A DNA stretch of 64,000 bases from Amphiscolops sp. MND2022 (lineage: Eukaryota): contig OZ076409.1 of NCBI GenBank assembly GCA_964187785.1, forward strand, positions 72,666,001 to 72,730,000. Direction: 5' to 3'. Below, piece by piece: positions 28,301 through 64,000 of the stretch; positions within the stretch are counted from its first letter, which is position 1; every line of letters begins with the position of its first letter. The notes under the pieces were generated by a model, which had not been told where the DNA came from, ran no database searches, and worked only from the letters and a program-made list of their open reading frames with translations. The position numbers were made by a program, and so were the translations under genes.

Positions 28301-30078
28301 AACTCTACTTCTATTGTAGATTATCAGATTTTTGTTTAGAACAAATTTTTATGGATATAAAAAATTTTTAAACCCTTCAAAAATGAGCCAAAATAACACG
28401 AAAAAATGGACCCTAAATTTTTAAAATGTCAAAAAGATATCCAAACCACAGCTTCTTGGGGTTCTATCAGCTCCACGTGGTCCACAGAGTATGCTAAAAC
28501 AGGTTTTGCCCGTTTTTGAGCAGTATATGAAAAAGCCGACATTTTTGGGGAAGAAAAACATACCATTTCCTAAATAATTTCAAATGCAGGCAATTTGCCG
28601 TATGAGAGTAGCACAGAAAACTATCACACACCGATCAACTCTACTTCTTTTGTAGATTATCAGAATTATGTTTAGAGTAAAGTTTTATGGATATGAAAAA
28701 TTTTTATACCCTCCAAAAATGGGCCAAAATGACACGAAAAAATTGACCTCAAATTTTTAAAATGTCAAAAAATTATCCAAACCACAGCGTCTTGGCGTTC
28801 TATCAACTCCAAATGACCTTCAGAGTATACCAAACCAGGTATTGCCAATCTTTTGAGCAATATTTAAAAACACCGACTATTTGGCAAGAACACCATAATA
28901 TGTTCCATATAAGAAGTGAATCATTCCACATATATACCCGGTCTAATATTTTCAAATTAGCGATAACATTAATACATGATGTTTTTTGAAAGTGAGCTTC
29001 ATAAGAGGTTGAGATGTAATAATACGTAAATGGACCCTAAGTTTCATTGAAATCTCAATGGAATACGTCCAATCAACTTCAATCCTAACTATTATATAAC
29101 AAGAAACACTTGAGTACATTCCATCTCCCCATCGGGGGAGATGAGAATGTACTTTTCAAAAGCCAAAAACTTCGAATTTTAAATCTTTTGTAACATTGTA
29201 TGTAACTGTTGAAACGATGAACGAATAAAAATGCTTCTAGTACCTTCATCAATTTTTGCTTCAGCTCCTATTTCTGCAGAACAAAACCAAAAGACACACT
29301 TACAGCAGTTAAGTTCGATTGTATAACTCAGTGAATAAAGGTATGACTGAGGAAGTTCACAAGTTGTTTCAAAAGTTTCCGGCCTTCCAAAATCATGAAA
29401 CGTCCACACAACCAAGATAGCAAGTGAAAGAATGCTGAATGCACCTTATTAGATGAGATAAATAACGTGTGGAACTTGCCATTATCTTAAGATGACGTTG
29501 ATTTATGATCTTTTAAGGATAGTTCGATATGTGACCACAATAGTGGAAAACTTATTACTATTTGAAGAACACCGTGGAAAGCGTTCAGAAAGGACAGTAT
29601 ATTTGTTTCGAGCATGCATGCGTGTGTTCCTTTGGTGACGTTAGCTTAGTGTACATGACGGAGGTATTCGAGAGATTATGATAGAGTTTACTCACAAGTC
29701 TTTGTTTTTTTAAACTTTCTATGCCGTTGAGTACATTCGTAAGGTCCATCCATCCCCTTCTCTGGGAATGTACGTTTGCCAAATGACTGTCATCCAAAAT
29801 TCGTAATCCGGACGAGTTTAACTACATAAACATGTGATGAGCGTTTTCTATTCAAAACCGAATAACTTTTTTTTCTCGAAAATGATGATGGTTTTGATTT
29901 TGATGTCTTCTACTTTTATCATCATGCAAACGACCTTACCATGTCTCTCTTCTGTCGTCATTTGTACAACGCCACATAGCGTTCCGACGCCCACCGTCTG
30001 TGGGCATGCCGAGGCATGCCCTTCGACGACGTATGCCAAATGAGCCATACCCGCACTCTGGAGTGCGGTAGCGGCTAG
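25318..30078 (+). mobile_element. U11: family A-long cassette, 4761 bp (diverged from U2/U5)
   Basis: Same layout as U2 with many substitutions; H2 hairpin 29113-29153. Confidence 0.8.
27515..28885 (+). repeat. About 4 copies of the ~337-bp internal tandem repeat
   Basis: Homologous to 4790-6140 (GGGTTCTATCAACTCCACGTGGTCCACAGAGTATG recurs). Confidence 0.85.
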
Positions 30079-34062: not shown

Positions 34063-36055
34063 GTGCGGGGGGGTAACCCCAACTTTTTTCTTGGAGGAAT
34101 CGGGTAGGGTCCTGATTCCGAGTTCAGTGCCGCCAGCTATCGTTAAAAACCTATACCTTTTAAACCCGATCTCGAGAACTAACCACGCCCCTTCTTTAAT
34201 TTTTTGGCCCCCACTCACTTTTTGATAGTAGATCGCCCCCCACTGGGTTCCAAGTTGGGCAAAAATGGAGGTCAGGGGTAACGGGGACCGTTAAGGGGTA
34301 ACTCAGGGGGTAAAATTTATTTTTTGCGTCATATCTTTTCCCCCCGTGGATTTAGCGCTTCCGGTCAGCAGACAAAACCTCATGTACGTGATACGGGGCC
34401 TCCATAGGTCCAAACAAAATTTTTCTATCATGCACCGTTACGGACTTGCCCCCCCGGCCCAACCGTTATTTTGCCGGAAATTGCACTTTTTGACCGGGAA
34501 GGAGTCGTCTGAGCACGGAGTCGTTTGGTAATGTTTTGTAGTGCATCTGGAGACGTGTTGGGGGACATGTAGTTTGCCGACCCCAGTTTACCCCTCAGAC
34601 GGGAAATGACCGTTATGTCAGTTTTGAAAATGCCCCCCTTCAATTTTCCCCGCAATTTCCGTTGTGAAGGAGTGGGAGTAGCGCGTCGGGTGCCATATAT
34701 CAAAAGTAGGTTTAGACAAGGACCAACCGGAAACATGTGGTTTGGGACCCCCTGACCCAACCCGTTAGCCGTTATAAAGGTGATCGCCTCCTTTTTTTAC
34801 ACTCAAAACCGGAAAACGGGCATTGAGGGGTAAATATCTCGTGAACGCGTGGAGCAATCGTGTCCATCACTACTACAAGGTTTCATACCCATGATATGGT
34901 GCCTTCAGGGGGGCAAACAGATTACCGCTATCTATCACCGTTACCGACTTGGCCCCCCAGCCTAACCGCTATGTGACCGGAAATTGCACTTTTTGAGCCC
35001 AAAGGGTCGGTCCCAGCCTGGGAACGTTAGGTAACTTATTGTAGTACTCATTGAGACGAGTTGGGGGATATAGTTTCAGTCACCCCCCGTTACCCCTTGA
35101 GACCGGAAATGACCGTTATGTGAGTAGAATTGCAATTTTTATACCTTTTGAAGGGCATTTAGGTGCGGAAGGAATGGTAATAGGCGCTTGGACACTATAT
35201 GATGTAATGGAGGTCGTGAGGAGAGCATTCGGAAATAACCGTTATGTTGACCCCAAAGTCCCCCTGGTACCGTTAACGACCGGAAATGGCCAAATTTTGT
35301 GTTTATAGGGTACAAATGTTTGGTATTTTATGGATAAAAGTACCTGGAAGATGTTTTAAAGGCCTCCAGAATTGAACATAGTCATGAAACCTTGTGGGGG
35401 ATAACGGTATATAGCACCGTAAGTCCAAACCGTTGGTCACAGAATAGGTTTTTTGGTTTCAAAATGTCTTTAGGCGTAGTTTTGTGGGTTGAATCGTCAT
35501 AATATCAACTAATACGGACTTTTTTGGGAAATGAAATTTTTTCACATTAGTTTCAGGGACCTACAATGCTTTAGTCAACATAACCGTAACATTTTGATAG
35601 CCTTTCAAGTTGACCTGGTGTCAACTTGGAAGGGCTATCCTTCTAAAATCGTTAATCAAGAGTGTTTTTGGATAGGTATATGTTGCATTAGTACCAATTA
35701 GAGCTTCATCAACAGTTTGCCAACGGCAAAACAATGTCGTGATAATTCCGTTATAAGAATAACAGTTAACAAATTGTTTACAAAGTTGATTTTTCCCATT
35801 CAAAATGTGTCCAAATGCCACCAAATTGAATAAAATAATAAATGGTATTGACTAAAACTAACTAACATTGAAAAAGAAGCTCAACATTTTTAATAGGTCT
35901 CATTATGGAAGCTGAAACCTCACGTTTTAGTTTAATTAACGTCAACGCCACATACTTTACTACAACGCCCACCGTCTGTGGGCATGCCGAGGCATGCCCT
36001 TCGACGACGTATGGCAAATTCGCCCCTGCGAGGTCACTACCGCGGTAGCAGCTAG
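34063..36055 (+). mobile_element. U14: family B cassette, 1993 bp
   Basis: B subfamily nearly identical to U21. Confidence 0.8.
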
Positions 36056-38037: not shown

Positions 38038-40027
38038 GTGGGCGGGGGTAATTCCCCAACAAAAAAATCGGCCGGCGGGTCGGGTCCTGCCGGCCGTCCA
38101 AAATCAAAATCCTCCTAGTAGAAAACGGCATGTCAAACGAGCTATTTTTTTATTTAACCATTAGAATTTCACCATTTTTTGCATGCGGCCCTGAAATGGC
38201 CATACGAGACGAAGTTCCTGCTGACGTTTTGCGATGTAAATGTTTTATAAAAAGTTATGGCCGATTTGTCATTCACCTAGAAGGGTAAAATGAGGAAAAT
38301 TTTAACAAAGTCGCTGATAACTCAAAATGTGTTAATTTTTGGACTTTGACTGTGAAACAAGCTTGGAACCTTCATTTCGTGGCTGGGGCATTGGACTGAA
38401 CACAAAAGATGTAAAGTTTTTACGTTTTTTGAAAATTCGACATTTTTGAAATTTTTTTCACTACTATCAGTACCCCATATGTCAAAAACACCTCAGAAAA
38501 AAATTTTTATTTGCTTTAAATTGGAAACCTTGGTATCCATGGTTTCTGTCGGAACCTACTCGCAGCCAAACACCCAACAGTTTGCATCCAATGTGAAAAT
38601 AAAAATTTTTTCGGGGACATAAGCGTTTCACAAGGTTTTCATGTTTTAGTATTAAATTACATAGTGGTCATTTTAAACATAAAATTTTGGTCCAGGTATG
38701 TCGGATATAGTCTGAATGCTCACGAACGGTCCTACTGGCAACGTAGGAACCATTTATAGTAATGAAAAGTAATAAAAAAATTTTTTTAACCGGTCTTCAG
38801 TCATTTTTCAGACATTCGGAACTTAACTTAGAAAATTTTCGAACCAAATACCCATTTTTTGTCAGGTCGAAAATTGAAATTCAGCTATTAAAGCAAAATT
38901 TTTTACTCTGACGTAACCAGTGGGGTCCATGATACTCAAAAATACGATTGGGACTGGTACCAATGGCTCCTATATCATATGAGCCGCGATAAGACGTTAT
39001 TTTGAGCAATACGTCTCAATTGAGGTAAACATCTTGCAAGCCTGGGATCACAGTGAAATGTAATTTCATCAAAAAATTACTCATTTTCGTCAATCACTAT
39101 GTGCAGAGAGTGGGTAGGGTGAGTTCCAACACTATAATGAGGTTTTTGAAGGCATAGGGTTGCTCAAGGGGTGGTATGAGTCATTACTTTCCTCTATACA
39201 ACTGTATTTTCAAAAACTTTTAGCCCATTATCTGGAAAAATTAACTTGACAAAATACTTTCAATTAATTTATTCAAAGGTTACAATATAGATGAACACTG
39301 TGGTTGATCAGAAACTTTCATCTCTTTCGTTTTCCGAAATAACTCCTTTCAAATGTGTTACATTTGTAGCAGGAAAAAAAACTGAAACTAAAAAATACGC
39401 GATTTTGCTGAGATAGAATCGCAATGGTTGCGCCTAAAATCTCTTTAAATACTTCTAACGCGACCTTACGGACCCAAAATGATTGAAAATGCCATTCACA
39501 ATGCTGACATCTGCTCTTTCTACGATCCTGGCTGGACAAGTTTTGCATTTTTTTCAAGTACCTGTTAACTGAACATTGTGATAGCCTTTCAAGTTGGCCT
39601 TGTGTCAACTTGGGAAGGCTGTCACATCAAAAAACTGTCAACAAAAATACTCTTTGTTTATAGGATAATGCTGTCGATGCTTCACTTCGTGATTCGATCA
39701 TGTCGTGAGTTCCTTCCATCAGGTCAGCTAACATTTGGATTCAGTGTTGGATAAGAACCTATGATTTTCATGACAATTTTAGTTCTTTTTTGTCAACAAA
39801 AAGTACAAATAAATGATATAAAACATATTTGTAACCTTTAGGAAGTTTAACTTTACCTTTATTTACCGTTGCCATCGCCACCCACCCCCTACGACCTCGC
39901 AGTGTCCTCATTACAACGCCACATAGTGTAGCGACGCCCACAGTCTGTGGGCATGCCGAGGCATGCCCTTCGACGACGTATGCCAAATATAGCGTTAGCC
40001 CGCGGTCACTACCGCGGTAGCAGCTAG
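38038..40027 (+). mobile_element. U16: family A cassette, 1990 bp
   Basis: U1-type 5' part joined to U6/U12-type 3' part. Confidence 0.8.
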
Positions 40028-42005
40028 GTGGGCGGGGATTTCACCCCAAAAAAAACTAGAGCGGCGGGTAGGGTCCTGCCGCGAACTCCCAAAACAGCTA
40101 TCGCTTATAAGAAAAAGCACACCCTGAACAGCCGATTTTAAAATCTAACCGTACGATTCTTCTCATTTTTTGCATGCGGCCCTAATTTGCACATACGAGA
40201 CGAAGTTCCTGCTGACGTTAAGCCCTAAAAACATTATAAAAAAAGTTATGGCCAATTTTTGGTCCCCATTAGATGTAAAAATGATGAAATTTTTCATAAA
40301 AGGGCAAATATCTCAAAATGCAGTACTTTTTGGAAATTGACTGTGAAACAAGCTTGGAACCTTCATTTCGTGGCTGTGGCATTGCACTGAACACAAAAGA
40401 TGTAAAGTTTTTACATTTTTTGAAAATTTGAGAATTTTGAAATTTTTTTCACTACTTTCAGTACCATATATGTCAAAAACACCTCAGAAAATAATTTTTA
40501 TTTGCTTTAACTTGGAAACCTTGGTATCCATGGTTTCTGTCGGAACCTACTCGCAGCCAAACACCCAACAGTTTGCATCCAATGTTAAAATAAAATTTTT
40601 TTCTGGGTCATAAGCGTTTCACAAGGATTTCTCAACTTAGTATTAATTTACAAAATGGTCATTTTGAACACAAGATTTTCATCGAGGCTTGTCGGCTATA
40701 GCCTTAATGTTCTAGAACGGTCCCACTGGCAACGTAGGAACCATTTATAGTAATAGAAAGTTTTAAAAAAATATTTTCACCCGGTCTTCAGTCATTTTTC
40801 AGTCATTCGGAACTTAACTTAGAAAAATTTCGTCTCAAAAACCCATTTTTCGTCAGGTCGAAATTTGAAATTCAGCTTTTGAAGCACAAATATGCACTCT
40901 GACGTAACCAGTGGGGCCAATGATACTCAACAACACCATTGAGACTGGTATCAGTGGCTCCAATAACATATGAGCCGCGATAAGACGTTATTTTTAACAA
41001 AACTGTTCAAATGAAGTAAACATCTCGGAACCCTTGGATCACAGTGAATGTTGATTTGAACAAAAACTTACTCTTTTTTGTCAATCACTATGTACACCGA
41101 ATGCTTAGGGTGAGTTTCAGCACTACTATGAGGATTTTGAAGGAATCGGGTTGCTCAAGGCGTGGTATGAGACACTTTTGTCTCATATACTACTGCTTTT
41201 TTGAATAACTTTTCGCCCAATATCTCACAAAGCAAACCTAAAAAATACTTTCCGATACTTAATTCACTTCTTAGAATATAATTGAACATTGTGGTTGATC
41301 AGAAACTCTCAACTCTTATGTTTTTCAATAAATATTCCTTCGCATGTGTCCCATTTGTAGCATTAAAAAAAGCTGAAGCTAAAAAATACGCTATTTTGCT
41401 AAGATAGAATTACAAGTATTGTAACCAATATATCTTTAAATACTTCTAACGCCACCTTACGGACCCAAGATGATTGAAAATACTGTTCACAAGGATCACA
41501 TGTGCTCTTTCTGCGATCTAGGCTGCTCATTTTTTGCTTAGTTCACATGTAGCTGTTAACTGTATCTTGTGATAGCCTTTTAAGTTGGCCTTGTGTCAAC
41601 TTGTGAAGGCTATCACATCAAAAAACTATAAACAAAAGTACGTTTTGTTTACATGGTATAGCTTTCGATAGTTATTTTTGTGATTCTGTCCAACGTTGGT
41701 ACCTTCCATGATGTCAGCTAATGATAGCATTCAGTCTTCGATAAAAACCTATGAACTCCAAGCACATTTAGATATTTTTTGCTATAAAAAGTCATCAAAA
41801 AGATCGAAATTATTTAATATAGAGTCTTTAACGTTTTTATTTTTCGTTTTTCTACTGTTGTTAGGCCCATGAACATCTTACAGCCACGCTGTCTGTCATT
41901 AGTACAACGCCACATAGTGTTGCGACGTCCACCGTCCGTGGGCATGCCGAGGCATGCCCTTCGACGACGTATGCCAAATATACGCATTAGCGCGGTAGCA
42001 GCTAG
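40028..42005 (+). mobile_element. U17: diverged family A cassette, 1978 bp
   Basis: Variant 5' hairpins (GCGGCGGGTAGGGTCCTGCCGC); collinear A body. Confidence 0.8.
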
Positions 42006-42167
42006 GTGCGGGGGGGAAACCCCAACAAAATTTTTGGAGGATTCGGGTAGGGTCCTGAATCCGAGTTCAGTGCTGCCAGCTTTCGTGTGCGGGGGGGAAA
42101 CCCCAACAAAATTTTTGGAGGATTCGGGTAGGGTCCTGAATCCGAGTTCAGTGCTGCCAGCTTTCGT
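42006..42167 (+). repeat. Exact 81-bp tandem duplication of the cassette 5' end
   Basis: 42006-42086 equals 42087-42167; both begin GTGCGGGGGGGAAACCCC. Confidence 0.95.
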
Positions 42168-44080
42168 TAAGAAAATTTGGATAGGATTCGGGATCTCGTG
42201 ATCTAACCATAGGATTTTAAAGTTGGAGCGGCCCCCACCAGATTTTCCGAAAATTAGCGCCCCCCACCGGGTTCCATACCCCGGAAAATTTTTTTCTGGC
42301 CACACGGGCGACCGTTAGGGGGTCATTTTAGGGGTAAAATTCATATTGGGCCACATAACTTTTTTTCTGTTGATTTAAAACTTTGGGACCCTGCTAAAAG
42401 TTTCTTGGCCGTGTTGCAGGGGCCCCGGAGGTCCAAACCAAATTTTTCTATCTTGAAGCTATCTCCAAGTACCCCCCCGCCCAAAACGTTATTTTTCCGG
42501 AAACGCAGGTTTTTGACCCGGAAGGAGTCGTCGGAGCGCGGGGTCGTTAGGTGATGTATTGGGGACGGCCTTGAGACGAAGTGGGGGACATGCAGTTTGC
42601 CAACCCCAGTTTACCCCCCGGACGGGAAATGACCGTTATATGAGCGGGAAAAATGCCCCCTTCCACGTTTTACCGCTATTTTCGGTGTGAAGGAGTGGAA
42701 GTAGCGCGTCGGGTGCCATATATCAAAAGTAGGTTTAGACAAGGACCTATCGGAAACATGTGGTTTGGGACCCCCTGGACCAACCCGTTAGCGGGAAATG
42801 GGGCTTCCGCCTCCTTTTTTTACTGCTAAAACAGCAAAATGGGCATTGAGGGGTAAATATCTCGTGAACGCGTGGAGCAATCGTGTCCATCACTACTACA
42901 AGGTTTCATACCCATGATATGGTGCCTTCAGGGGGGCAAACAGATTTCCGCTATCTATCACCGTTACGGACTTGGCCCCCCAGCCTAACCGCTATGTGAC
43001 CGGAAATGTCACTTTTTGAGCCCAAAGGGTCGGTCCCAGCCAGGGAACGTTAGGTAACTTATTGTAGTACTCATTGAGACGAGTTGGGGGACATAGTTTC
43101 AGTCACCCCCCGTCACCCCTTGGGACCGGAAATGACCGTTATGTGAGTAAATTTGCCATTTTTGTCCAATTTGAAGGGCATTTAGACGCGGAAGGAGTGG
43201 TAACAGGTGCTTGGACACTATATGAGGTAAGGGAGGACGTGAGGCGAGCATTCGGACATAACCGTTATGTTGACCCTAAAGTCCCCCTGGTACCGTAAAC
43301 GACCGGAAATGGTCAAATTTTGTATTTTTAGGGTACAAATGTTTGGTATTTTATGGAATAAAGTACATGGAAGGTGTTTCAAAGGCATCCAGAAATGAAC
43401 ATAGTCATGAAACCTTGAGGGGTGTAACGGTATATAACACCGGAAGTCCAAGCCGTTGGACACAGTATAGGTTTTTGGGTTTTAAAATGCTTATGAACGT
43501 ACATTTGTGGGTTGAATTGTTCTAATATTGACTATTTTCGATATTTTTTGACATTAAAGGTTTTTCCAATAGTTTCAGGGACCTCCAAAGCTTCAATCAA
43601 CATAACCTTTACATTATGATAGCCTTTCAAGTTGGCCTGGTGTCAACTTGGAAGGGCTATCCTTCACAAATCGTATATCAAGTGTGTTTTTGAGTAGGTT
43701 TTTATCACTTTAGTATCAATTAGAGCTTAATCATTAGTTTGCCAACGACAAAAACCATGTCGTGATGATTCCGTTAGTAGAAGAATAGTTAACAACTTGT
43801 TGACAAAGTTGATTTTTTTTTGCATTTAAAATGCTTCCTAAATGCCAGGAAAACGATTTACGTTATAAATGGTACTGATTGACCCAAATAACAGTTAAAA
43901 AAAGTTAAACATTATTTTTTCGTTTCATTATTGAAGCTGAAACCTCACGTTTTAACTTAATTAACGTCAACGCCACATACTTTACATCAACGCCCACCGT
44001 CTGTGGGCATGCCGAGGCATGCCCTTCGACGACGTATACCAAAATCCAATATATCTACACCCACCCGCGGTAGCAGCTAG
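42006..44080 (+). mobile_element. U18: family B cassette, 2075 bp (1994 bp plus an 81-bp 5' duplication)
   Basis: U7-like 5' end present twice. Confidence 0.8.
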
Positions 44081-46871
44081 GTGGCGGGGGGCTGTCCCCA
44101 ATAGAATATAGTGAGGTAGGGTAGGGTTCCCTACCGAACATTCAGTACTGAAAGACTCTTGTAGTATGAAAATTTTTCGATGTTTTGAGACCGATTTCGG
44201 ATTCCACCCGTCAGAAGTTTATGATTTTTTGGCCCCCACCCAGATTTTGGGCACTGATCGCCCCCCACCAGGTTCCATACCCGTGGTTTCGTTGTGACGG
44301 GTACACGAGCGACCGTTAGGGGTCAATCAGGGGGTAAAATTTATAAAAGTGTGAATAACTTTTCCCCCCGTCGTTTTAGCAGGTCCGGTCACTAGTAAAG
44401 GTTTGTTGGGCATCATGCAGTGGGTACGGGGGGCCAAACAAAAAATTTCTATCTTGCACCGTTACGGACTTGGCCCCCCGCCCAAACCGCTATTTTACCG
44501 GAAATTGCACTTTTTGACCGGGAAGGAGTCGTCTGAGCGCGGAGTCATTTGGTAATGTTTTGTAGAGCATCTGGAGACGTGGTGGGGGACATGTAGTTTG
44601 CCGACCCCAGTTTACCCCTCGGACGGGAAATGACCGTTATGTGAGTTTCAAAAATGCCCCCCTCCAATTTTCCCCGCAATTTCCGGTGTGAAGGAGTCGG
44701 AATAGCGTGTCGAGTGCTATATATCAAAAGTAGCTTTAAACAAGGACCTATCAGAAACATGTGGTTTGGGACCCTTTGAACGGACCCGTTAGCCGGAAAT
44801 AGGGTGACCGCCTCCTTTTTTTGGTGGTAAAACCGTAAAACGGGCATTAAAGTGTAATTATCTCGTGAACGCGTGGAGCAATCGTGTCCATCACTCCTAC
44901 AAGGTTTCATACCCATGACATGGTGCCTTCAGGGGGGCAAACAGATCAGCGCTATCTATCACCGTTACGGACTTTGCCCCCCAGCCTAACCGCTATATTA
45001 CCGGAAATTGCCCTTTTTGACCAGGAAGGAGTCGTCTGAGAGTGGAGTCGTTAAGTAATGTTTTGTAGAGCATCTAGAGACGTGTTGGGGGACATGTAGT
45101 TTGCCGACCCCGGTTTACCCCTCGGACGGGAAATTACCGTTATGTGAGTTTTAAAATTGACCCCCTTCAACTTTCTCCGTTATTTCCGATGTGAAGGAGT
45201 GAGGGTAGCGCGTCGGGTGTCATATATCAAAAGTAGGTTAAGACAAGGACCAACCGGGAACATGTTGTTTGGGACCCTCTGGCCCAACCCGTTAGCCGTT
45301 ATAAGGGTGATCGCCTCCTTTTTTTACTGCTAAAACCGGAAAACGGGCATTGAGGGGTAAATATCTCGTGAACGCGTGGAGCAATCGTGTCCATCACTAC
45401 TACAAGGTTTCATACCCATGATACGGTGCCTTCAGGGGGGAAAACAGATTACCGCTATATATCACCGTTACGGACTTGGCCCCCCAGCCTAACCGCTATG
45501 TGACCGGAAATGTCATTTTTTGAGCCAAAAGGGTTGGTCCCAGCGTGGGAACGTCAGGTAACTTTATGTAGAACTCAATGAGACGAGTTGGGGGATATAG
45601 TTTCAGTCACCCCCCGTTGACCCGTTAGACCGGAAACGACCGTTATGTAGTGAAAAATGTAATTTTTATACTTTTTGAAGGCCATTTAGGGCAGGAAGTA
45701 TCGGTAATATGTCTTTGGACAGTATACAATGAAAGTTTTGGTGTGAAACAAGCAATCTGAAATAACCGTTATTATGATTCGGAAGTCACACTAACAGCGA
45801 AAATGACCGTTATGTAGTGAAAATTTTTTTTCACATTTTTTTTGCTTTCGATAGGTCCTTCAAGCCAAGAAGTAGCTGTATTAGGTCTTTGGTCACTTTA
45901 TGATGATTGTGGTGTTGTGAGATGACCGTACGAACTTGACCTTTATAATGCCCCTGAAGTTGGTGTGGCACGAGAAATTTCAGAAAGTTTGTCTTTTCTG
46001 TGTTTTGTTGGAATAAACATGTAATTTCATCAAACCAAAGTGCATTCAGGGTGTCAGAAAGCTTCAAGAAAAGAATTTGACAGGAAACATGAGGTGAGAA
46101 ATAGGAAAATGCCACGGAAATCCAACCCGTTGGGAAGTAAAGATAATAAATTGGTTTGGAAGTGCCAATCGACGTGTAATTGCGGATCATAGCTACGATA
46201 TTGTCTCTGTTGTTTCTTTTTGAAGACTTTGAACATTTTCACTTTATCAGCTTGAAGTTTCGACTCCATTAACTCAATAACCGTTACAATATGATAGCCC
46301 TCAAGTTGACCTTGTGTCAACTTGAAAGGGCTATCCTTTCACAACTGCGCAGCGACAGTGTGATTGAGTGTTTTTGTTATTATCCATAGCCAATTTGAAC
46401 TTCAACAAAAGTTTAACCATAGTTAAAAAATTTCATATGATTCTTTTAAAAGGATAAGTAAGAAACAAATGTTTGACAAAAAACTTTCAACCTTTAATTT
46501 GTGGACTGAATATCAGGAAAACCATGTCTCCTAACGTTGTTGGATGAAATTCAACATGATTCTTTTAATAGGATAACAAAGTTTGACAACATATTTTTTT
46601 ATATTCTTTCGTTGGTGCTCTACATTTTAGGAAAACGAATTTTCCAACAAATATTGTTGGCTGATGCCTGTTCATAGTGGCTTGAAAATTTCACCAACTG
46701 TAATGCTTTTTATCAAAGGTGAAACCGCTCCTTACCGTCGCATAATGTAATTCAAGCCGACGCCCACATGCCAACATCAACGCCCACCGTCCGTAGGCAT
46801 GCCGAGGCATGCCTTTCGACGACGTATGCCAAATCACGCCCCTGCGAGGTCACTAAAGCGGTAGCGGCTAG
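44081..46871 (+). mobile_element. U19: family B-long cassette, 2791 bp
   Basis: B-like body with an extra ~503-bp module, diverged 3' part, H1 hairpin at ~46293, variant core. Confidence 0.75.
44458..45650 (+). repeat. 503-bp internal tandem module, 2 copies plus a partial third
   Basis: ACCGTTACGGACTT anchor at 44458, 44961, 45464. Confidence 0.85.
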
Positions 46872-48841
46872 GTGCGGGGGGGTAACCCCAACAAATATAT
46901 TGGAGGATTCGGGTAGGGTCCTGAATCCGATTTTAACTCTAATAGCTATCGATAGGAAATCTTGCAAAAATTTCGGGATCTCGTGATCTAACCATAGGAT
47001 TTTAAAGTTGGAGCGGCCCCCACCAGATTTTCCGAAAATTAGCGCCCCCCACCGGGTTCCATACCCCGGAAAATTTTTTTCTGGCCACACGGGCGACCGT
47101 TAGGGGGTCATTTTAGGGATAAAATTCATATTGGGCCACATAACTATTTTCTGTTGATTTAAAACTTTGGAACCCTGCTAAAAGTTTCTTGACCGTGTTG
47201 CAGGGGCCCCGAAGGTCCAAACCAAATTTTTCTATCTTGAAGCTATCTCCAAGTACCCCCCCGCTCAAACCGTTATTTTTCCGGAAACGCAGGTTTTTGA
47301 CCCGGAAGGAGTCGTCTGAGCGCGGGGTCGTTAGGTGATGTATTGGGGACGGCCTTGAGACGAAGTGGGGGACAAGTAGTTTGCCAACCTCAATTTACCC
47401 CCCGGACGGGAAATGACCGTTATATGAGCGTGAAAAATGCCCCCCTCCACGTTTTACCGCTATTTCCGGTGTGAAGGAGTGGGAGTAGCGCGTCGGGTGT
47501 TATATAACAAAAGTAGGTTTAGACAAGGACCTATCGGAAACATGTAGTTTGGGACCCCCTGGACCAACCCGTTAGCGGGAAATGGGGCTTCCGCCTCCTT
47601 TTTTTAGTGCTAAAACCGTAAAATGGGCATTGAGGGGTAAATATCTCGTGAACGCGTGGAGCAATCGTGTCCATCACTACTACAAGGTTTCATACCCATG
47701 ATATGGTGCCTTCAGGGGGGCAAACAGATTTCCGCTATCTATCACCGTTACCGACTTGGCCCCCCAGCCTAACCGCTATGTGACCGGAAATGTCACTTTT
47801 TGAGCCCAAAGGGTCGGTCCCAGCCGGGGAACGTTAGGTAACTTATTGTAGTACTCAATGAGACGAGTTGGGGGATATAGTTTCAGTCACCCCCCGTTAC
47901 CCCTTGGGACCGGAAATGACCGTTATGTGGGTAAAATTGCAATTTTTATACTTTTTCAAGTGTATTTAGGTGCGGAAGGAGTGGTAATAGGTGCTTGGAC
48001 ACTATATGAGGCAAGGGAGGACTTGAGGCGAGCATTCGGAAATAACCGTTATGTTGACCCTAAAGTCCCCCTGGTACCGTAAACGACCGGAAATGGTCAA
48101 ATTTTGTGTCTATTGGGTACAAATGTTTTGTATTTTGTAGATAAAAGTATCTATTAGGTGTTTCGACGGTCTACAGTAGTGAACATAGTCATGAAACCTT
48201 GTGGGGGGTAACGGTATATAGCACCGGAAGTCAAACCGTTGGAGACAGGATAGGTTTTTTGGTTTTAAAATGTCTTTCGGCGTAATTTTTTTGACTCTTG
48301 TGGACTATTTTTAAAAATTAAAGTTTTTCCATATAGTTTCAGAGACTCCGAAACCTCAACCAACATAACCGTTACCTTATGATAGCCTTTCAAGTTGGCC
48401 TGGTGTCAACTTGGAAGCGCTATCCTTCTGAAATCGTTAATCAAGAGTGTTTTTGGGTAGGTATATATTGCATTAGTACCAATTAGAGCTTCATCAACAG
48501 TGTATCAACGACAAAAACTATGCCGTCATGATTCCGTTATTAGAATCATAGTGAGCAAATTGTTGAAAAAAATGGTTTTTACCATACAAAATGTGTCCTA
48601 AATGCCAGGAAACCTATTTACCTAACAAATGGTATTAATTGGAATGTATGTAACAGATTTATAAAAGTTCAAATTGAATATTACATTTCATTATGGAAGC
48701 TGAAACGTCATATTTTAGTTTAATTAACGTCAACGCCACACACTTTACATCAACGCACACCGTCTGTGGGCATGCCGAGGCATGCCCTTCGACGACGTAT
48801 GACAAATCCTTATCAAACGACGCCCGTACATCCCGGGCTAG
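46872..48841 (+). mobile_element. U20: family B cassette, 1970 bp
   Basis: Mosaic of U9-like and U7-like segments. Confidence 0.8.
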
Positions 48842-50835
48842 GTGCGGGGGGGTAACCCCAACTTTTTTCTTGGAGGAATCGGGTAGGGTCCTGATTCCGA
48901 GTTCAGTGCCGCCAGCTATCGTTAAAAACCCATACCTTTTAAACCCGATCTCGGGAACTAACCACGCCCCTTCTTTAATTTTTTGGCCCCCACTCACTTT
49001 TTGAGAGTAGATCGCCCCCCACTGGGTTCCAAGTTGGGCAAAAATGGAGGTCATGGGTAACGGGGACCGTTAAGGGGTAACTCAGGGGGTAAAATTTATT
49101 TTTTGCGTCATATCTTTTCCCCCCGTGGATTTAGCTCTTCCGGTCAGCAGACAAAACCTCATGTACGTGATACGGGGCCTCCGTAGGTCCAAACAAAATT
49201 TTTCTATCATGCACCGTTACGGACTTGCCCCCCCGGCCCAACCGTTATTTTGCCGGAAATTGCACTTTTTGACCGGGAAGGAGTCGTCTGAGCACGGAGT
49301 CGTTTGGTAATGTTTTGTAGTGCATCTGGAGACGTGTTGGGGGACATGTAGTTTGCCGGCCCCAGTTTACCCCCCGGACGGGAAATGACCGTTATGTGAG
49401 TTTTAAAATTACCCCCCTTCAATTTTCCCCGTTATTTCCGGTGTGAAGGAGTGGGAGTAGCGCGTCGGGTGCCATATATCAAAAGTAGGTTTAGACAAGG
49501 ACCAACCGGAAACATGTGGTTTGGGACCCCCTGACCCAACCCGTTAGCCGTTATAAGGGTGATCGCCTCCTTTTTTTACACTCAAAACCGGAAAACGGGT
49601 ATTGAGGGGTAAATATCTCGTGAACGCGTGGAGCAATCGTGTCCATCACTACTACAAGGTTTCATACCCATGATATGGTGCCTTCAGGGGGGCAAACAGA
49701 TTACCGCTATCTATCACCGTTACCGACTTGGCCCCCCAGCCCAACCGCTACGTGACCGGAAATTGCACTTTTTGAGCCCAAAGGGTCGATCCTAGCCGGG
49801 CAACGTTAGGTAACATATTGTAGTACTCATTGAGACGAGTTGGGGGATATAGTTTCAGTCACCCCCCGTTACCCCTTGAGACCGGAAATGACCGTTATGT
49901 GAGTAGAATTGCAATTTTTATACCTTTTGAAGGGCAATTAGGTGCGGAAGGAATGGTAATAGGTGCTTGGACACTATATGATGTAATGGAGGTCGTGACG
50001 AGAGCATTCGGAAATAACCGTTATGTTGACCCCAAAGTCCCCCTGTTACCGTTAACGACCGGAAATGGCCAAATTTTGTGTTCATGGGGTACAAATGTTT
50101 AGTATTTTATGGATAAAAGTACCTGGAAGATGTTTTAAAGGCCTCCAGAAGTGAACATAGTCATGAAACCTTGTGGGGGGTAACGGTATATAGCACCGTA
50201 AGTCCAAACCGTTGGTCACAGAATAGGTTTTTTGGTTTCAAAATGCCTTTAGGCGTAGTTTTGTGGGTTGAATCGTCATAATATCAACTAATACGGACTT
50301 TTTTGGGAAATAAAATTTTTTCACATTAGTTTCAGGGACCTACAATGCTTCAGTCAACATAACCGTAACATTTTGATAGCCTTTCAAGTTGACCTGGTGT
50401 CAACTTGGAAGGGCTATCCTTCTAAAATCGTTAATCAAGAGTGTTTTTGGATAGGTATATGTTGCATTAGTACCAATTACAGCTTCATCAACAGTTTGCC
50501 AACGGCAAAACAATGTCGTGATAATTCCGTTATAAGAATAAAAGTTAACAAATTGTTTACAAAGTTGATTTTTCCCATTCAAAATGTGTCCAAATGCCAC
50601 CAAATTGATTAAAATAATAAATGGTGATGACTAAAACTAACTAACATTGAAAAAGAAGCTCAACATTTTTAATAGGTCTCATTATGGAAGCTGAAACCTC
50701 ACATTTTAGTTCAATTAACGTCAACGCCACATACTTTACATCAACGCCCACCGTCTGTGGGCATGCCGAGGCATGCCCTTCGACGACGTATAACAAACAC
50801 CTTTAATATCTACACCCACCCGCGGTAGCAGCTAG
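48842..50835 (+). mobile_element. U21: family B cassette, 1994 bp
   Basis: Nearly identical to U14 except the terminal ~40 nt; last cassette with the 3' core. Confidence 0.8.
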
Positions 50836-51907
50836 GTGGAATTGGGTTATGACAAACTCATTTTTCGAGGTTGGGGTAGGGCCCACAACCGAGCCCTAAT
50901 TTCATTTGCTACTGTACCGAAACCCCCCCTGAAAAATCACGATCTTTTATATGAGCCCTACGATTTCGTTGAAACTTTGCATGAGGCAAGAAAAAAAAAT
51001 TCTAAGAATTTTTTCTTGCTGACACTTTTTCGAAAAAACGGTCCTTAATGGTTTTTTTGGCACTTTTTTGTTGAAATTTAGTGCATTTTGTGCATTATTC
51101 GTGAGTAACGTGAATAAAAATGAATGTGCTCAGAATTGGACCATATTATATGCGAATACTCAGCACAGTTATGCGATTTCATTTTCATGTCGCGGCACGT
51201 CGCTCCGACTCTCGAGAGTTAGTTATGACAGGATGAAAAAATACAAATGAGTGCCAAAAAAACGAGGTAGGAATTTTTTTTTTTAAATTATGTTTTCGAA
51301 CAAAAATGTGAATAATTTTTTTTCACATGACAAAAAAAAGTACGAAAAAAAGTACGAAAACAAGTACGAGAAAAAGTACAAAAAAAATTGGATAATTTTT
51401 TTTGAAAAAAAAAACAATTTTTTGGAATATTTTTTTCACCGTACAGGACCTAATTAGTACCGTAGAATTCATTTTATGCATTGCCCAGTTGCCCTTCTAT
51501 TGTTTTGTAGCGCTGACAACTTATTTGAGGTTTGTGTAGCAAAGTATGTTCAGCAAAGTTTAAAGGGAGGAACCATATAGTTTATTTTAAGTCAACTCTA
51601 TTATATTTCACACTGCTGTTAACCAAAATTAACTCTTGCGGTCGTCTCATGGTCCCGGAGTGGTCCATGAGACAGACGCAATGGCAAAACACAAAGGTCC
51701 AAGTGATGATTAGTCGTAGTGTCACATGTGATCCTGCATGTGACGGCTGTATATAGGTTGGAGCTGTTTTTCTTTTTCGAAACTTTCGCATTGGCAATAT
51801 GTCTTTTAATGTCTTAGTTGCGATGTTATTACCTTCATCGAGTACGTTCTCCTAACACTCTTAACCCAACTCGCTAGACTAATGGCAGTGGACGGACACG
51901 AGTCTAG
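50836..51907 (+). mobile_element. U22: family D cassette, 1072 bp (single copy)
   Basis: 5' GGTTGGGGTAGGGCCCACAACC hairpin, conserved 5' block, H4 hairpin 51638-51679, ends AGTCTAG; no core. Confidence 0.7.
51333..51380 (+). repeat. 12-bp minisatellite (AAAAAAAGTACG) x4
   Basis: Four slightly degenerate copies. Confidence 0.85.
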
Positions 51908-52977
51908 GTGGTCAAGGGGGATGCCCATCAGAAAATATTGCGAGGCCGGGGAGGGTCCCGAGAGCCGAGCACATTCTATCAATTCCTACCTTCAGGATTG
52001 CGAAGTATTTTAACCGATCTCGAAATTCACCCGTAGGATTTGTCTGAAACTTTGCATGTGGCTTTATCTCAAAAATTTAAGAATTTTTTTCTGCTGACGT
52101 TTTTCCAGAAAAATTCATTTTGAAGGGTTTTTTTGCGTTTTTTTGGTTTTTTTCATCTTTTTTCATCTTTGATTAATCAATGACCGAATCAAAGGCCATT
52201 TTCACCATGAAGGAAAGCCCGTAGCGGCAAAGTGCACTTTTATGAAAATCATCAACGGTCAACGGTCTTTCGAACGGTCCGAAAAAATTTCCCCCCGGGG
52301 GAAACCAAAGTGCCGAAAAGTGCCAAAATTAATTTTTTGACTGAATCACTTTGATCAAATTGATGATTTGAGCAGCCGGAACGGTCCGCACGGTCTCGGA
52401 CAATAAGGTCAAAAATTGTCAGCATCCAATGGGGGTTCCAAAAATGTAATTCGTTCACCTGTAGGAGACATCAGAAAAAAGTTGATTTTTTGGGGTATAT
52501 GTCATTATGAGTGATTGGATGAGAAATAATTGTATCACTTTCAGTTGGATATGATGCAGCACAGGAAGCAGCTGCAGCAAACTAGAAACTGGTTATGGGG
52601 CTGGGGTTTACCCTCTGTATCGAGCAAAATAGCCCTAGGGCATAAGTTGTGCCAAAAAATGCCTCAAACTGATGATTTGGTTATTGCAAATCGATCAGCA
52701 AAATTTATTGTCACCGGTGTTCCGAGAGTTGCGCAGCATCTCGCAGGAACAACGGTGCTTGTTTAGAAAGCAAAAAACCACAAAATCCCTTGAGTTAAGT
52801 TGACGGCAGTCACCATAGACATTCACTCGTCAGGGTGATGATATTTATCGTTCAATCCCAGAATAACTTACAAAAAATTGCTAGCCTCAATATTTCTTTT
52901 TCATACTCCATTAGCAAAGGTTGCGCTGTTAAGTTTAGGCCTTTTACTAGCAGTGCTCTAAATCGCTCCATCGCTAG
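51908..52977 (+). mobile_element. U23: family E cassette, 1070 bp
   Basis: Starts GTGGTCAAGGGGGATGCCC; H3 hairpin 52710-52757; ends CCATCGCTAG. Confidence 0.75.
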
Positions 52978-54048
52978 GTGGTCAAGGGGGATGCCCATCA
53001 GAAAATATTGCGAGGCCGGGGAGGGTCCCGAGAGCCGAGCACATTCTATCAATTCCTACCTTCAGGATTGCGAAGTATTTTAACCGATCTCGAAATTCAC
53101 CCGTAGGATTTGTCTGAAACTTTGCATGTGGCTTTATCTCAAAAATTTAAGAATTTTTTTCTGCTGACGTTTTTCCAGGAAAATTCATTTTGTAGGGTTT
53201 TTTTGCGTTTTTTTGGTTTTTTTCATCTTTTTTCATCTTTGATTAATCAATGACCGAATCAAAGGCCATTTTCACCATGAAGGAAAGCCCGTAGCGGCAA
53301 AGTGCACTTTTATGAAAATCATCAACGGTCAACGGTCTTTCGAACGGTCCGAAAAAATTTCCCCCCGGGGGAAACCAAAGTGCCGAAAAGTGCCAAAATT
53401 ATTTTTTTGACTGAATCACTTTGATCAAATTGATGATTTGAGCAGCCGGAACGGTCCGCACGGTCTCGGACAATAAGGTCAAAAATTGTCAGCATCCAAT
53501 GGGGGTTCCAAAAATGTAATTCGTTCACCTGTAGGAGACATCAGAAAAAAGTTGATTTTTTGGGGTATATGTCATTATGAGTGATTGGATGAGAAATCAT
53601 TGCATCACGTTGAGTTGCATTTGATGCAGCACACGAAGCAGCTGCAGCGAACTTGAAACTGCTTAGGGGGGTAGGGTTTACTATCTGTAACAAGCAAAAT
53701 ATCCCTTGGGCAAAAGGTATGCCAAAAAGTGCCTCAAAGTGCTAATTAAGTTGTTGCAAATCGGCTAGCAAAATTTATTGTCACCGGTGTTCCGAGAGTT
53801 GCGCAGCATCTCGCAGGAACAACGGTGCTTGTTTCGAACGCAAAACCCAACATACCTCTTTGGTGACGTGACGGAGGTCACCATTGGCCTTTTTCGGCAG
53901 TGTGATGATATTATTATTGTTGAATTGTGAACAACTTACACAAAAGATTTAGCGTGGGATATTTGTTTGTTTCATACTTCAGTAACAAACTTTCAACCGT
54001 TTCGTTTAGGCCTCTACCTAGCAGTGCTCTAAATCGCTCCATCGCTAG
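52978..54048 (+). mobile_element. U24: family E cassette, 1071 bp
   Basis: First ~620 bp almost identical to U23, then diverged; H3 hairpin 53780-53827. Confidence 0.75.
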
Positions 54049-55080
54049 GTGGTCCGGGGAAGTACCCCACAGGAAAATGCGAGGCGCGGGGAGGGTCCTG
54101 CTAGCCGAGCCTAAAAAATAGGATTCTAAAAACTAATTATATGCCAGGGGGGTACAGGAACACGATCTCGGAATTGAACCGTAGGATTTTGCTGAAATTT
54201 TGCATGCAGCCATAAATGGAAATTCTAAGAATTTTTTCCTGCTGGCACTTTTTTGAGAAAACGCAATTTCGGAAGTTATGAGCAAATGATCGGTTTTTTC
54301 ACCTATTTTCGGTACTTTTTCGCTGCAATATCTGCAGCATGTGCACACAATTGGCTGATACTTTACATGCGAGGCATAAATGATGTTAGGTGTTTGCATG
54401 TCAAAAATCATTAGGCTGGTGATACTAGGCTGGGAGATAGAATCGAAAGTGATACCGGGAAATGGTGAAATCTCCGGTCATCGCGTCATAAATTCCGAAC
54501 TTTTGTATAGATGGTCTTTACTTAAGTGGTAGCAGTACAGTTGATGTGTTTTTAACATCACGTGATGAGGATAAAAAATAAAAAATAAAAAAGTTCTACA
54601 TAAGTTCTACCAGAATTCGTAAAATGGAGAATTTTTGCCAAAAAATTTTTTTCCGCGTTTTTAATGAAATAACCTACCAGGAATTCAAAAATCACGTTAT
54701 TTATTGTGCCAGCGGTGTGAAAATGGGTCATAAGTTCAACATTCACCAAATTTCTATACCAGTTTTACCAAACATTGAGATAAAACTGTTCAGTATACAT
54801 TAAACTCAATATGTGACTTTAATTTTTTGGAATCATTGTCACCGGTGTTCCGAGGGATGCACAGCAGCTCGAAGGAACAACGGTGACCCGAAGGGGGGCT
54901 GTAGGTACCTTTTAAATCGTACGGCAGTCACTGTATAGTTTTCTTCGTCAAGGTACTACATGTGATTGTGACATGTAAGATGTTCACGAAAGGAGCCCAA
55001 AATGAACAAGAATTACATGAATTAACATCCGTAGAGTACCGAACGCGCCCTCTGGTAATTGGTACCTTTCCCTCCACTGG
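54049..55080 (+). mobile_element. U25: family F cassette, 1032 bp
   Basis: Double 5' hairpin, conserved 5' block, H3 variant 54838-54887, ends CTCCACTGG. Confidence 0.7.
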
Positions 55081-58000
55081 GTGGTCCGGGGCTTAATTTG
55101 CCCCACAATAGTCATTGCGAGGCCTGGGGAGGGTCCCGGAGCCGAGCGCTATATACAAAATGCATCCATGGTAGACCGGGAGAAAAACAAGCGATTTTCC
55201 AATCTAACCGTTAGATTTCCATGAAACTTTGCACACATACATAAAATCAAATTCTAAGAACTTTTTTCCCCTGACGTATCATGATTGAAACATTTGTTGA
55301 AAAGTTATGTGCAAATGATCGTGTTTTTTGGCCATTTTTCGCATTTTTCACGTAGTAGCTCCACACTTTACGCTATGCATTTGGCCCATTTTTTGCGTGC
55401 GAGGCATAAATGATGTCATGCTTACACATGCCAAAAATTATTTCTTAATTCGCAACAGGAGTGGAGATATGGCGGATAATATTGGCGGAAAATTTAACGA
55501 TTACGAAACTTTGCACACATTTGGCCAACATTTGTTTCAAAAATGACAAAAATCAAAAAGTCCGCGGATTGCGTTGAAACTTGGCACACAGGTAGTAAAA
55601 CAAATTTTAAGAACTTTTTTCTTCTGACGTTTTTCCGAAAAATTGCATCTTCAACCTATATTTGCAATGTTTCGGGTTTTTTGATTCAACGTGATTTATC
55701 ACTCACATATTCAGAGTCCATTTTCAGCATGAAGCAACGCAGATACCGCCAATGTGCACATTTTGCAAAATCATCAACGGCCAACGGTCTACCGAACGGT
55801 CCAAAAAAATTTTCCCCTCGGGCCCAATCAAAGTGGCCAAAAGTGCCAAATGGTTTTTTCCAACAGTATCACCATTACAAAATTGATGATTTGACCAGGA
55901 GCAACGGTCCGCACGGTCTCGGACCATAAGGTGAAAAAGTGTCAGTGAGTTATGGTGACGACCAAAATGACATCAGTTGACCTCTAAGAGGCCTCTGGAA
56001 AAATTTGATTTTTTTGAGTCACGGTCCGAGTTGATCTGTTACGTTGAATGAACATTTCATAATCATGTTACTCATAACCGAGTACAGATAGCACCGTGGG
56101 TCATCTTTATGAAAATGAACATTGGGCAGCGGTCTAACGACTGAGTGCAAAAATAATACCTTAGTTGCCATAGGGAAGGAAAAAAATTTTCAGAAGTGTT
56201 GTTTTCAATTTTTCATGTCGACTCGCAGTTACAAAATTGTGATTTTCTCTTCAGCAACGGTCCGAACGGTCTGGTACCATAAGATAAAAATTTGTCAGTG
56301 TGACATGGTGGCGCCCAAAAACACATCAGAACACTGGTAGGAAGCCTCTGAAAGAGTTTCGAATTTTCACGTGGGTCCGAGAGTTATAGTGTCACATCGT
56401 AACTACATTTCGGGTATGCATATCTCCTCACAGAGTACAGATAGCATCATGGGTCACCTTTTCGAAAAAGAACGTGGGCCACTGGTCTATCGATTGGTTA
56501 GAAAAAGTTTTCAGTCACTGCTGCACGGCGTGAATAATATGCCAATATGGGGTATTTAGCATTTTTTTGCACGACTCGGACCTACAAAAGCCTATTTCTG
56601 CTGCACCAACGGTTTGTACGGTCTTCGACCATAAGGTCAAAAAGTGTCAGTGTGCTATGGTGACGCCCAAAAACCCACCAGTACACTTGTAGAGTGCTTC
56701 CGAAAAATTTTGGATTTTTTAGGTGAGTCCGAGAGTTATAGAGAGTTATGTTGTCACATCGAAACTACATTTCGGGAATGTATATCTCCTGACAGAGTAC
56801 AGATACCAACATGGGTCATCTCTTGGAAAGTGAACGTCGGCCACTGGCCTACCAAATGGTGATAAAAAGTTTTCACCAGTTGCTACAGGGAGTGATAAAA
56901 GTGCTTACATGGGTTACATAGCATTTTTTCAGGCGACTCGGACTTACAAAAAGCTCATTTGCTCGCCAACAACGGTCTCTACGGTCTCCACTCAATGGGT
57001 CGAAAATTTTTTGTGGGCTATGGTGACGCTCAAAAACCCATCAGTTTACTTGTGGGATGATTCTGTAAAAATTTCGTGTTTTCGTGCAGACTATGTTACA
57101 TATTACATTGGGAACCGTGTTTTTTTCTCTCCAAAATCATGTTTTTGAGTGCCCAAAAACTGTTTTTAAAGCCCAGTAGCCATCTAAAATGTACTTTTGC
57201 ATAACACGGGGTGTGAATAACGTGAAAAAAGTGTTCACTGTGGATTTGGAGTTATGTCGAAAAAATCAGCTGCCATTAGACGTTACATTACAGAAAATCG
57301 TACCTTACATATCGATTCATGGGTTGAGTCAAAAACAGCTAAAGTTCTTTTTCAGTCAATCAAGACTCTTTTTTGTTCACAACCAAGTGTACTGCTGACG
57401 TCGAACCTATTTTGACCTTCCACAATGGTTATAGTGCAATTTTGAGGTACAAAAGCCTCGTTGACAAACAAAATTCCAAGATGAAATTGCTTTCCAAATC
57501 ATTTTTTGAAGTATAGGAACGCCATTTTCAGCCGACAACCATCAAATATCCACTTCTCTTGGCCCAGTGGCTTGTGAAAAATACAACTGGGCATTGACAA
57601 GGCACAAGGACCTTACTTCGAGTAGTCATGTGCCACAATATTCGCTAATCGATAGCAAATTTTGTTGAAAATTGATACAACATCACATTTTTGGTGGACT
57701 CGAAATGACAAATTGGAGCTTCTGCAGCAACTATAGGCTTTTAGTGCAACTCAGTGGCACTGTTACTTAGGAAAATACGGTCTACAGTAGTTTCATGCTA
57801 ATTTTTCAGAATCTGAGGTACATAAAAATATCATACTGAATAGACATATGACTTAAACATTGGAATTTTTCCGGTTGTGTCACCACTTTTTTGGTATCAG
57901 CGGTCCTACCAACACCGTTTTTGGTCTAAAACTAAACCCGAGGCTCAACCAAGATATATATGAGACTTGTAAAATCAATGCAAGGACTTTCGACATGTCA

Positions 58001-62900: not shown

Positions 62901-64000
62901 CAAAAGTACTGATAAGACGAGAATCTTCTCAAAAATTCATGTTATGTGTCATATTCCATTCCACGTTTATTAATCGGTGCTTGTCGGTTATAGTATTAAC
63001 GCTCAACAACGAGCTTACTGACACGAAACAACTTGTAGACAGTTATTAAAAGTATGTATAATTCCAACATGCTCGGTTTTGGCAGATTTTTCATCCCATT
63101 AGTTCTTAACGTGTAAATTTTACTTCCCAAAAACCCTATTTTTGTCAGGTCGAAATTCGAATTTTCGTGTTTTGATCAATATTATTGTGTCTGACGTAAC
63201 CTGTGGCCTCCAAAATACTCAAAAACAATAGTATGACTGCTATCAAATGCTTCAGTGACATGTGGGGCACGTTAACACGTTTTGGTAAGAAAAATTCCAC
63301 TTCGAAGTGAAAATTTGGAAGACACATTGTGTCAATAAAAACTGAATACATGCAAAACGTTCCTAACTCCCGTCAATTAGTATTGACGTAGTAACTGTGT
63401 TGCGAATTAGAGGTCTATAGAGTGGTGTATGGGAAAACTGTGGCGCATAAAGCGTTGTTCATAACAAAGTTCTTCCAATAACTACAATTGTGTTTTCAAA
63501 AGTTTCACTATATTTCACATATTCACAGAATGTGATTGATGCTACCTAGTAATGGAAAACCACTGTCGAATCTTCTTTAGTGGACTCAACAGTCCTGAAA
63601 ATCACAGACATACATCACGTTTCATAATTATACACTCGAGGCTACACAATAATTTATTTCCGCTAGTTGCTGATAACTGAATTTCCTGATAGCCTTCCAA
63701 GTTGGCCTTGTGTCAACCTGGGAAGGCTATCAGCACAAAACACAAAGAACACAGCTTGTTGTTGCCTCTAATTTGCTGTTGTTTTCGTTAAGATTTTATG
63801 GTACCGTTTCTTTATAACATGTGGTTAACATAAGACAATTTCTCTCTGTATGGAACGACATCCATTGATAAGAAAGATTACAGTTTTTTAGTTGAAAAAG
63901 ACCTTGAAACTACTGCGCAATTCATGCAATTTATCCAAAACGTTCATTCATTTCAATAATTTGCGTCCCATTGAGCGTCACAAACCACTATACCTCCTTT
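59976..64000 (+). mobile_element. U27: family G-related cassette, truncated by the window end
   Basis: E-like 5' region, G-type repeats and body, H1 hairpin 63687-63732. Confidence 0.7.
60430..61980 (+). repeat. Diverged ~354-bp internal tandem repeats (5 anchors)
   Basis: Same anchor near 60448, 60801, 61155, 61508, 61871. Confidence 0.75.

Follow-up and report, generated by a model that had tools for sequence, protein, structure and literature searches.

Doubled 5′ ends have been described in the FoHeli elements of Fusarium oxysporum, in which the first 31, 65, 73 or 85 nt are found repeated (PMC5148889). In the available text of that study, its authors explain the multiple 5′ termini by self-insertion. 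For the Helraiser transposon, the accessible parts of two reports describe cleavage of the plus strand only at the end junction, precisely at the join (PMC4778049, PMC5876387), and a Helraiser with a damaged right end was found to keep its precise 5′ end and to make new 3′ ends (PMC4778049). Head-to-tail Helitrons of maize and bat are described, in the available part of the source, as abutting exactly and as having neighbours that can belong to different families (PMC2267711). The accessible portion of a review mentions plant centromere arrays in which several 5′ ends accompany a single 3′ end (Xiong et al. 2016, as given in PMC12628747), and inner tandem arrays as frequent in non-autonomous Helitron/Helentron elements (PMC12628747). 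Large local arrays with units of ~2 kb median length and a ~370-bp internal repeat are reported, again in the available text, for the subtelomeric Helitron-like repeat HSymSHlR of the invertebrate Hydractinia (PMC11934779).

The window analyzed here, a 64,000-nt stretch of the Amphiscolops sp. MND2022 genome (contig OZ076409.1, positions 72,666,001–72,730,000, forward strand), shares features with each of these systems. As in FoHeli, the first tens of bases of one element are repeated once before a single 3′ end, and the 5′ end carries a hairpin (PMC5148889). FoHelis, however, start with TCAG or TGCCT, bear 12–16-bp asymmetric inverted repeats, occur at dispersed sites and come with known RepHel partners (PMC5148889), whereas the elements of the window start with GTG, lack such an inverted repeat, lie in a mixed array and have no known partner. 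The Helitrons of maize, bat and plant centromeres, as far as the available descriptions go, occur in pairs or in arrays whose copies are decayed and truncated, whereas the present array extends beyond 64 kb and joins intact units, drawn from no fewer than seven families, through 27 precise joints in succession. By its description, HSymSHlR resembles the array in unit length, internal repeat and local abundance, but in the accessible text it is one family, as against several here, and has no defined ends or joints (PMC11934779). No description of a self-joined mixed array starting with GTG was found in a literature survey whose coverage of subscription papers was incomplete, and the families may already stand in Repbase or Dfam.

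A mixed array and its joints

The array extends through the whole window and can be summarized as follows.

1 to 64000, plus strand: mixed head-to-tail array with 27 CTRG^GTG joints, whose GTGs range from 598 to 59976, and 26 whole units of 1032–4895 nt; both window ends are open.

The units all lie on the same strand, are non-coding, measure 1.0–4.9 kb and fall into several families. Family A comprises nine whole units of ~1.99 kb and three forms of 4.76 kb that contain inner repeats of 336 bp, and family B seven units of ~1.99 kb and one of 2.79 kb; further units measure 1278, 1072, 1070/1071, 1032 and 4895 nt, and two more are cut by the window ends. Families A and B have little in common beyond short blocks. 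A plain rolling-circle concatemer is ruled out, since neighbors are seldom nearest relatives: this is so for only 2 of the 26 whole units, a count that leaves out the incomplete last unit, itself related to its neighbor U26. Comparison within the B family reveals internally mosaic units, indicating that ordinary recombination also reshuffles the array. The observed/expected CpG ratio of 0.95 shows no depletion, which suggests that the repeats are unmethylated.

Several further features of the array were observed. The family order forms 11 runs (with long forms counted under A and B), so few runs being seen in 0 of 20000 shuffles, and all six divergent D–G family units are grouped at the right end (50836–64000), a clustering that suggests layered accretion or tail/head compatibility. 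Units U14 (34063–36055) and U21 (48842–50835) are 97% alike and differ over their last ~45 nt, the U14 tail resembling those of U19 and of A-type units; tails thus appear to be exchanged also inside the common subterminal block, as a second swap point besides the joint. Unit U26 carries, at 55081–55570, an extra segment of ~357 nt after its head that resembles U25, together with a second copy of the conserved +127 to +200 block at about +487, and may be a chimera formed within that block. An internal hairpin block of ~40–60 nt, TGATAGCC...CAACTTG (43617–43655 and equivalents, lying ~400 nt before the 3′ end), is common to the otherwise unrelated A and B families, is also present in U26 and U27, and is a possible second cis signal. 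Long units contain inner tandem arrays of 336–362 bp, at 4817–6083, 13552–14832, 27548–28882, 56379–57053 and 60766–61974.

The plus strand of the window contains 27 copies of the heptamer CTRGGTG, each of them at a unit boundary. The 3′ ends at these joints are CTAG in 25 cases and CTGG in two, GTG opens all 27 heads, and at every joint CTRG directly abuts GTG, with nothing between them and no target duplication, so that all window joints read G^G. Comparisons between joints locate the switch from one family to the next. Joints 18078 and 32068 have 243 nt in common leftwards and 3 nt rightwards, joints 7348 and 32068 have 415 nt in common rightwards and 5 leftwards, and joints 51908 and 52978 have 201 nt rightwards and 4 leftwards. 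Because identity is lost at once on the other side, the switch falls within CTAG|GTG, at one of eight possible bonds. Reached independently of the duplication described below, this bracketing agrees with an earlier note on this DNA, which had proposed GTG as the 5′ end and CTRG as the 3′ end of the transferred strand.

Among the 27 joints, 22 tail/head type pairs are distinct. Similarity linkage across the joint (blocks 7 nt apart) amounts to a rho of 0.13 (p 0.096) for the first 22 of the 27 joints, vs. 0.43–0.85 for other neighboring blocks, and to a rho of 0.38 (p 0.003) over all 27 joints. Four joints (598, 9334, 11320, and 38038) combine the same tail with near-identical heads and are exactly identical over 79–110 nt to the left and 43–149 nt to the right; such long two-sided identity implies that these joints were copied through as a block and not newly made. 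On the minus strand, CTRGGTG occurs eight times inside units (840, 2830, 11562, 16333, 25560, 30321, 38280, and 44243), seven of these copies lying at offset 243 of A units. None of the eight is interrupted, which rules out the heptamer alone as a sufficient target.

The restart at a single joint

One joint of the array departs from this pattern, and the features around it, together with those of the closest comparable unit, are the following.

42002 to 42005, plus strand: CTAG, closing the upstream A-family element U17 (40028–42005) at its 3′ end, and putative 3′-OH side of the nick; all 27 joints end in CTRG.
42006 to 42086, plus strand: 81-nt 5′-end fragment, GTG...TTTCGT, without a matching 3′ end and including both head hairpins.
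42087 to 44080, plus strand: full-length non-coding B-family element of 1994 nt, with a GTG start not preceded by CTRG, ending in CTAG (44077–44080).
18078 to 20073, plus strand: sibling B element U7, with a single start, taken as the unduplicated state; its head alone, besides that of the adjacent copy, equals the 81-nt fragment.

The earlier note had reported that the 5′ end runs for 81 bp after CTAG and starts again at 42087, and this is exact: positions 42006–42086 and 42087–42167 form a direct tandem pair identical at 81 of 81 bases, with CTAG directly 5′ of the first copy and GTG opening the restart as it opens every head. The duplication lies within the span given there (42002–42170), although the repeat ends at 42167 and not at 42170. 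The first copy is preceded and followed by G and the second preceded and followed by T, and every shift of the repeat register between −4 and +3 costs 1–4 mismatches, the cost being zero only at CTAG^GTG. With its register fixed at one position, the duplication shows no microhomology, as had been claimed. The same note had called the breakpoint unambiguous, which is right in that no register can be slid, but the restart is a single event at the level of the assembly and the reading presumes that no untemplated base was added.

The duplicated unit (42006–44080) measures 2075 nt, or 1994 nt minus the repeat, a length that fits, as had been anticipated, the 2-kb class formed by the six other B-family units (1970–1996 nt). 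The repeat is the sole large insertion in the B-family alignment, and U7 matches the region of the second copy in an exact run of 321 nt. Among the 11 rows returned by Tandem Repeats Finder for the whole window, the 81-nt repeat is the only one with a 100% match, the remainder being the five internal arrays of 336–362 bp and five low-complexity repeats of 10–19 bp. A separate scan for adjacent repeats (10–400 nt, at least 90% identity, low-complexity units of up to 40 nt filtered out) gave the same picture.

Among the eight bonds of CTRGGTG, the start of the duplication selects G^G (n = 1), which is also the one position in agreement with the CTRR-3′ rule for Helitrons. That it falls inside the −4 to +3 interval set by the joint comparison supports a cut at CTAG^GTG on the plus strand, which we consider very probable. 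An assembly error, or a chance repair or slippage duplication that happened to start at a joint, would leave a comparable trace, and the two copies are indeed 100% identical, representing one event seen in the assembly only. If ~20 older breakpoints in the window are allowed for (a rough hand count), the likelihood of landing in the heptamer rises to ~7%, and that of landing exactly at G^G to ~1%. Slippage and graph loops, however, usually make use of overlap, which is absent at this duplication, and the few small indels between close units (two between U6 and U12, two between U14 and U21) suggest that the assembly is accurate. For a single event, a duplication placed at random would begin exactly at a joint with a chance of 27/64000, or 4.2e-4, and would have either of its ends among the eight cut positions of the heptamer with a chance of 0.7%. 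An origin by artifact or chance hence seems distinctly improbable.

Terminal signals and routes to the restart

An aborted round of transposition is the leading route to the restart. The array would consist of non-autonomous, Helitron-like single-strand transposons with 5′-GTG and CTRG-3′ ends that would target the joint they themselves form. Acting in trans, a transposase of HUH type would nick the plus strand at CTRG^GTG and stay on the GTG 5′ end; at the resident joint, the nick after 42005 would leave a 3′-OH on CTAG, to which a polymerase would add 81 nt, the old strand being displaced. Once the round had stopped, the new 3′ end would be joined to the displaced GTG end, and replication would fix an exact, blunt tandem duplication starting at the nick. 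The enzyme class, the nick chemistry, the self-targeting and the abort step are what we infer from the features of the locus, the CTRG end, the subterminal hairpin, the missing target duplication and the inner tandem repeats pointing to a HUH/Helitron-like enzyme. Against this account, the 81-nt fragment has TCGT at its end, unlike CTRR, and the ends of the elements depart from those of all Helitron groups in the accessible descriptions. To the account as a whole (HUH/Helitron-like nick, 81-nt extension, abort and rejoining) we assign an even chance. The cut itself is held with greater confidence because two of the alternatives discussed below, the insertion of an element or of a truncated sibling and the action of a retroposon, share the plus-strand nick.

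Three structural features lie near the cut.

42012 to 42023, repeated at 42093 to 42104, plus strand: head hairpin 1, G tract / C tract, from folds and alignment.
42039 to 42062, repeated at 42120 to 42143, plus strand: head hairpin 2 with the GGGTAGGGTCC motif (42045–42055), 39 nt from the cut, from covariation.
41940 to 41959, plus strand, the B element's own copy lying at 44005 to 44024: subterminal palindrome in the tail block common to families A, B and C (fold z −3.06 for 41900–42010).

The G/C hairpin 1 is present in most heads, and a GGGTAGGGTCC-like motif lies in the second hairpin of all of them, 38–40 nt from the cut in 25 of the 27 heads and at 45 and 54 nt in the other two. Hairpin 2 covaries across families (81.5% paired, 30 double changes, 0 of 500 shuffles, with relatedness uncorrected), and the G-T pair seen in 11 of 17 rows, which would be A-C on the minus strand, favors folding of the plus strand. 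Judging by these patterns, hairpin 2 is a candidate initiator-binding signal. An additional conserved block lies near +105 to +130 of the head. In the tails, a GC-rich, 18-nt hairpin with a stem of 7–8 bp stands 10–12 nt before the cut in 6 of 21 distinct tails, all of A type (shuffles: mean 0.09, maximum 2); no stem of at least 5 bp is found near the cut in 12 of the 21, including most B-family tails and that of the B element, and most B and D–G tails are without the A-type hairpin.

The earlier note had attributed the restart to a single nick and an aborted first round. The assignment of the GTG and CTRG ends is supported, but the same sequence would result if the same class of enzyme, cutting at the same place, had put a B element into a sister copy at 81 nt (TTTCGT^TAAG) and the resulting two-headed chimera had then moved as a single unit, or if a 3′-truncated sibling had been inserted at the joint. 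The accessible text of the Fusarium study proposes self-insertion for Helitrons that carry multiple 5′ termini (PMC5148889), and U7, with its identical head, could have been the donor. Insertion into a sister, however, has to take place away from a joint, and a search of the window with a head model returned 28 strong matches, namely the 27 joints and the restart at 42087, so that no such insertion was detected in the window by this model. Furthermore, only 2 of the 27 heads match the 81-nt fragment, one of them being that of the adjacent copy; were the donor picked randomly within the window, agreement with the neighbor would be expected in no more than these 2 of 27 cases, which favors an event in place. 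Both insertion routes are therefore considered unlikely.

Target-primed reverse transcription leaves one precise and one ragged end, as would be expected of the 81-nt fragment if it were the 5′-truncated copy of a self-targeting retroposon. A minus-strand RNA ending in ...CAC-3′ would in that case be reverse transcribed from the CTAG 3′-OH, with the same plus-strand nick and the polarity of the element reversed. The head, which would be the 3′ end of such an RNA, is also the part conserved across all families. Nonetheless, both ends are found on 26 of 26 whole units and only a single fragment is present, the units carry no poly-A or simple-repeat tail, and the G-T pair of hairpin 2 would become A-C on the minus strand. 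In addition, the RNA families of Rfam gave no match at gathering score over the whole window, five sub-threshold matches in 39800–56000, and one hammerhead-core match at chance level. A retroposon origin is thus very unlikely, and the same Rfam result rules out a 5S, SL or snRNA array.

Ordered cassettes on one strand with a short core at their joins are also reminiscent of a Crypton-like or integron-like tyrosine recombinase, which would insert circles at a CTRGGTG core and leave the duplication through an abortive recombinase nick. A few identical bases suffice for integron integrases. Here, however, the break lies in the middle of the heptamer and heads already differ at +4, leaving no 6–8-bp overlap, and inverted copies of a unit's own 5′ prefix extend over no more than 3–7 nt within its last 250 nt (26 units). 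When 93 stop-free stretches (62 aa or longer, taken from 10 representative units) were searched against Pfam, 15 weak matches resulted, all below cut-off, with no transposase or recombinase fragment among them. We regard this route as extremely unlikely.

Outside the window, the tail palindrome was found at one locus in metagenome contigs and at none in viral contigs, gapped head patterns returned 26 viral and 40 prokaryotic loci, and blastn against plasmids and phages gave no match. When head and tail profiles were applied to all 67 loci, only the palindrome locus was convincing, the next best having an E of 0.017 among loci pre-selected for the motif. This locus, on a metagenome-collection contig from another assembly (OBOP01004400.1), holds one related joint at 787–1016, which shares the tail block, the head hairpins and G^GTG with the window and has CGAG in place of CTAG; its palindrome is the same compensated variant as in U7, U10 and U19. 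The design of the elements is hence not private to the Amphiscolops genome, and G^GTG is its more constant part.

Relation to known elements and implications

Compared with Helitron1 (HLE1, exemplified by Helraiser) as presented in the available text, the units share a CTRR 3′ end (the 25 CTAG and two CTGG), a hairpin 10–12 nt upstream in A-type tails, the lack of a target duplication at all 27 joints, and precise end-to-end joints (PMC4778049, PMC5876387), and the pairing of a precise 5′ end with a variable 3′ end likewise recalls Helraiser (PMC4778049). A 3′ hairpin 10–12 nt before the end is also given for Helitron1 in the accessible text of the Fusarium study (PMC5148889); against the expected 16–20 nt at ~10–12 nt, the 6 of 21 tails with 7–8-bp stems are far above shuffles, and 12 of the 21 lack a stem of 5 bp or longer. 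Unlike Helitron1, the units begin with GTG (27 of 27 heads) and not TC, the joints, which lie within the array only, are G^G and not A^T, and the part conserved across families is the 5′ end and not the 3′ end.

Helitron2/Helentron (HLE2) elements have as their hallmarks an asymmetric terminal inverted repeat of ~11–17 nt, insertion at T^T and hairpins at both termini. The longest inverted copies in the 26 units are the 3–7 nt given above, the joints are G^G, and the head hairpin covaries across families while the tail palindrome is restricted to A, B, and C. A subterminal CGCCCAC, an inverted head copy ~85 nt from the end, was considered as such a repeat and rejected, being only 7 nt long and present in 6 of 26 units. 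With Replitrons, which are HUH elements, the array has in common that Replitron-1 inserts directly 3′ of RG and that the Replitron right end is imprecise, according to the available text (PMC10288648); all 27 cuts here follow AG or GG, a weak, 2-nt feature. Replitrons differ, in that text, in having short terminal direct repeats and, for Replitron-1, target duplications (PMC10288648), whereas no doubled motif is seen at the joints, where one shared copy could hide inside the array; Replitron arrays are not mentioned in that text. Judged on sequence features and on the published descriptions of the groups, the elements are Helitron-like in their working, yet lie outside canonical Helitron1 and Helitron2.

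A more far-reaching reading, possible but doubtful, is that the units represent a rolling-circle group with its own CTRG^GTG joint and head hairpins as obligate target, building ordered, integron-like arrays from many non-coding families through an undescribed HUH transposase outside Helitron1, Helitron2 and Replitron. The restart would then be a frozen intermediate that reveals the scissile bond and strand, and the arrays might mark a host centromere or chromosome end.

By analogy with Fusarium (31–85 nt), the doubled short 5′ end is an already known kind of Helitron scar. What departs from it is the mixed, apparently self-targeting array with its GTG, G^G and CTRG ends. In a pure head-to-tail array, the ends of the elements are unreadable from their flanks, since all joints look alike, and a single blunt restart is enough to assign the cut to one bond. 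It thereby yields a search key for the missing transposase, a 5′-GTG head with a motif at +39 and a CTRG-3′ end, as well as a defined substrate on which nicking can be assayed. Should self-targeting hold true, it would provide a direct route from a transposon to a large, mixed, satellite-like block, without the formation of concatemers.
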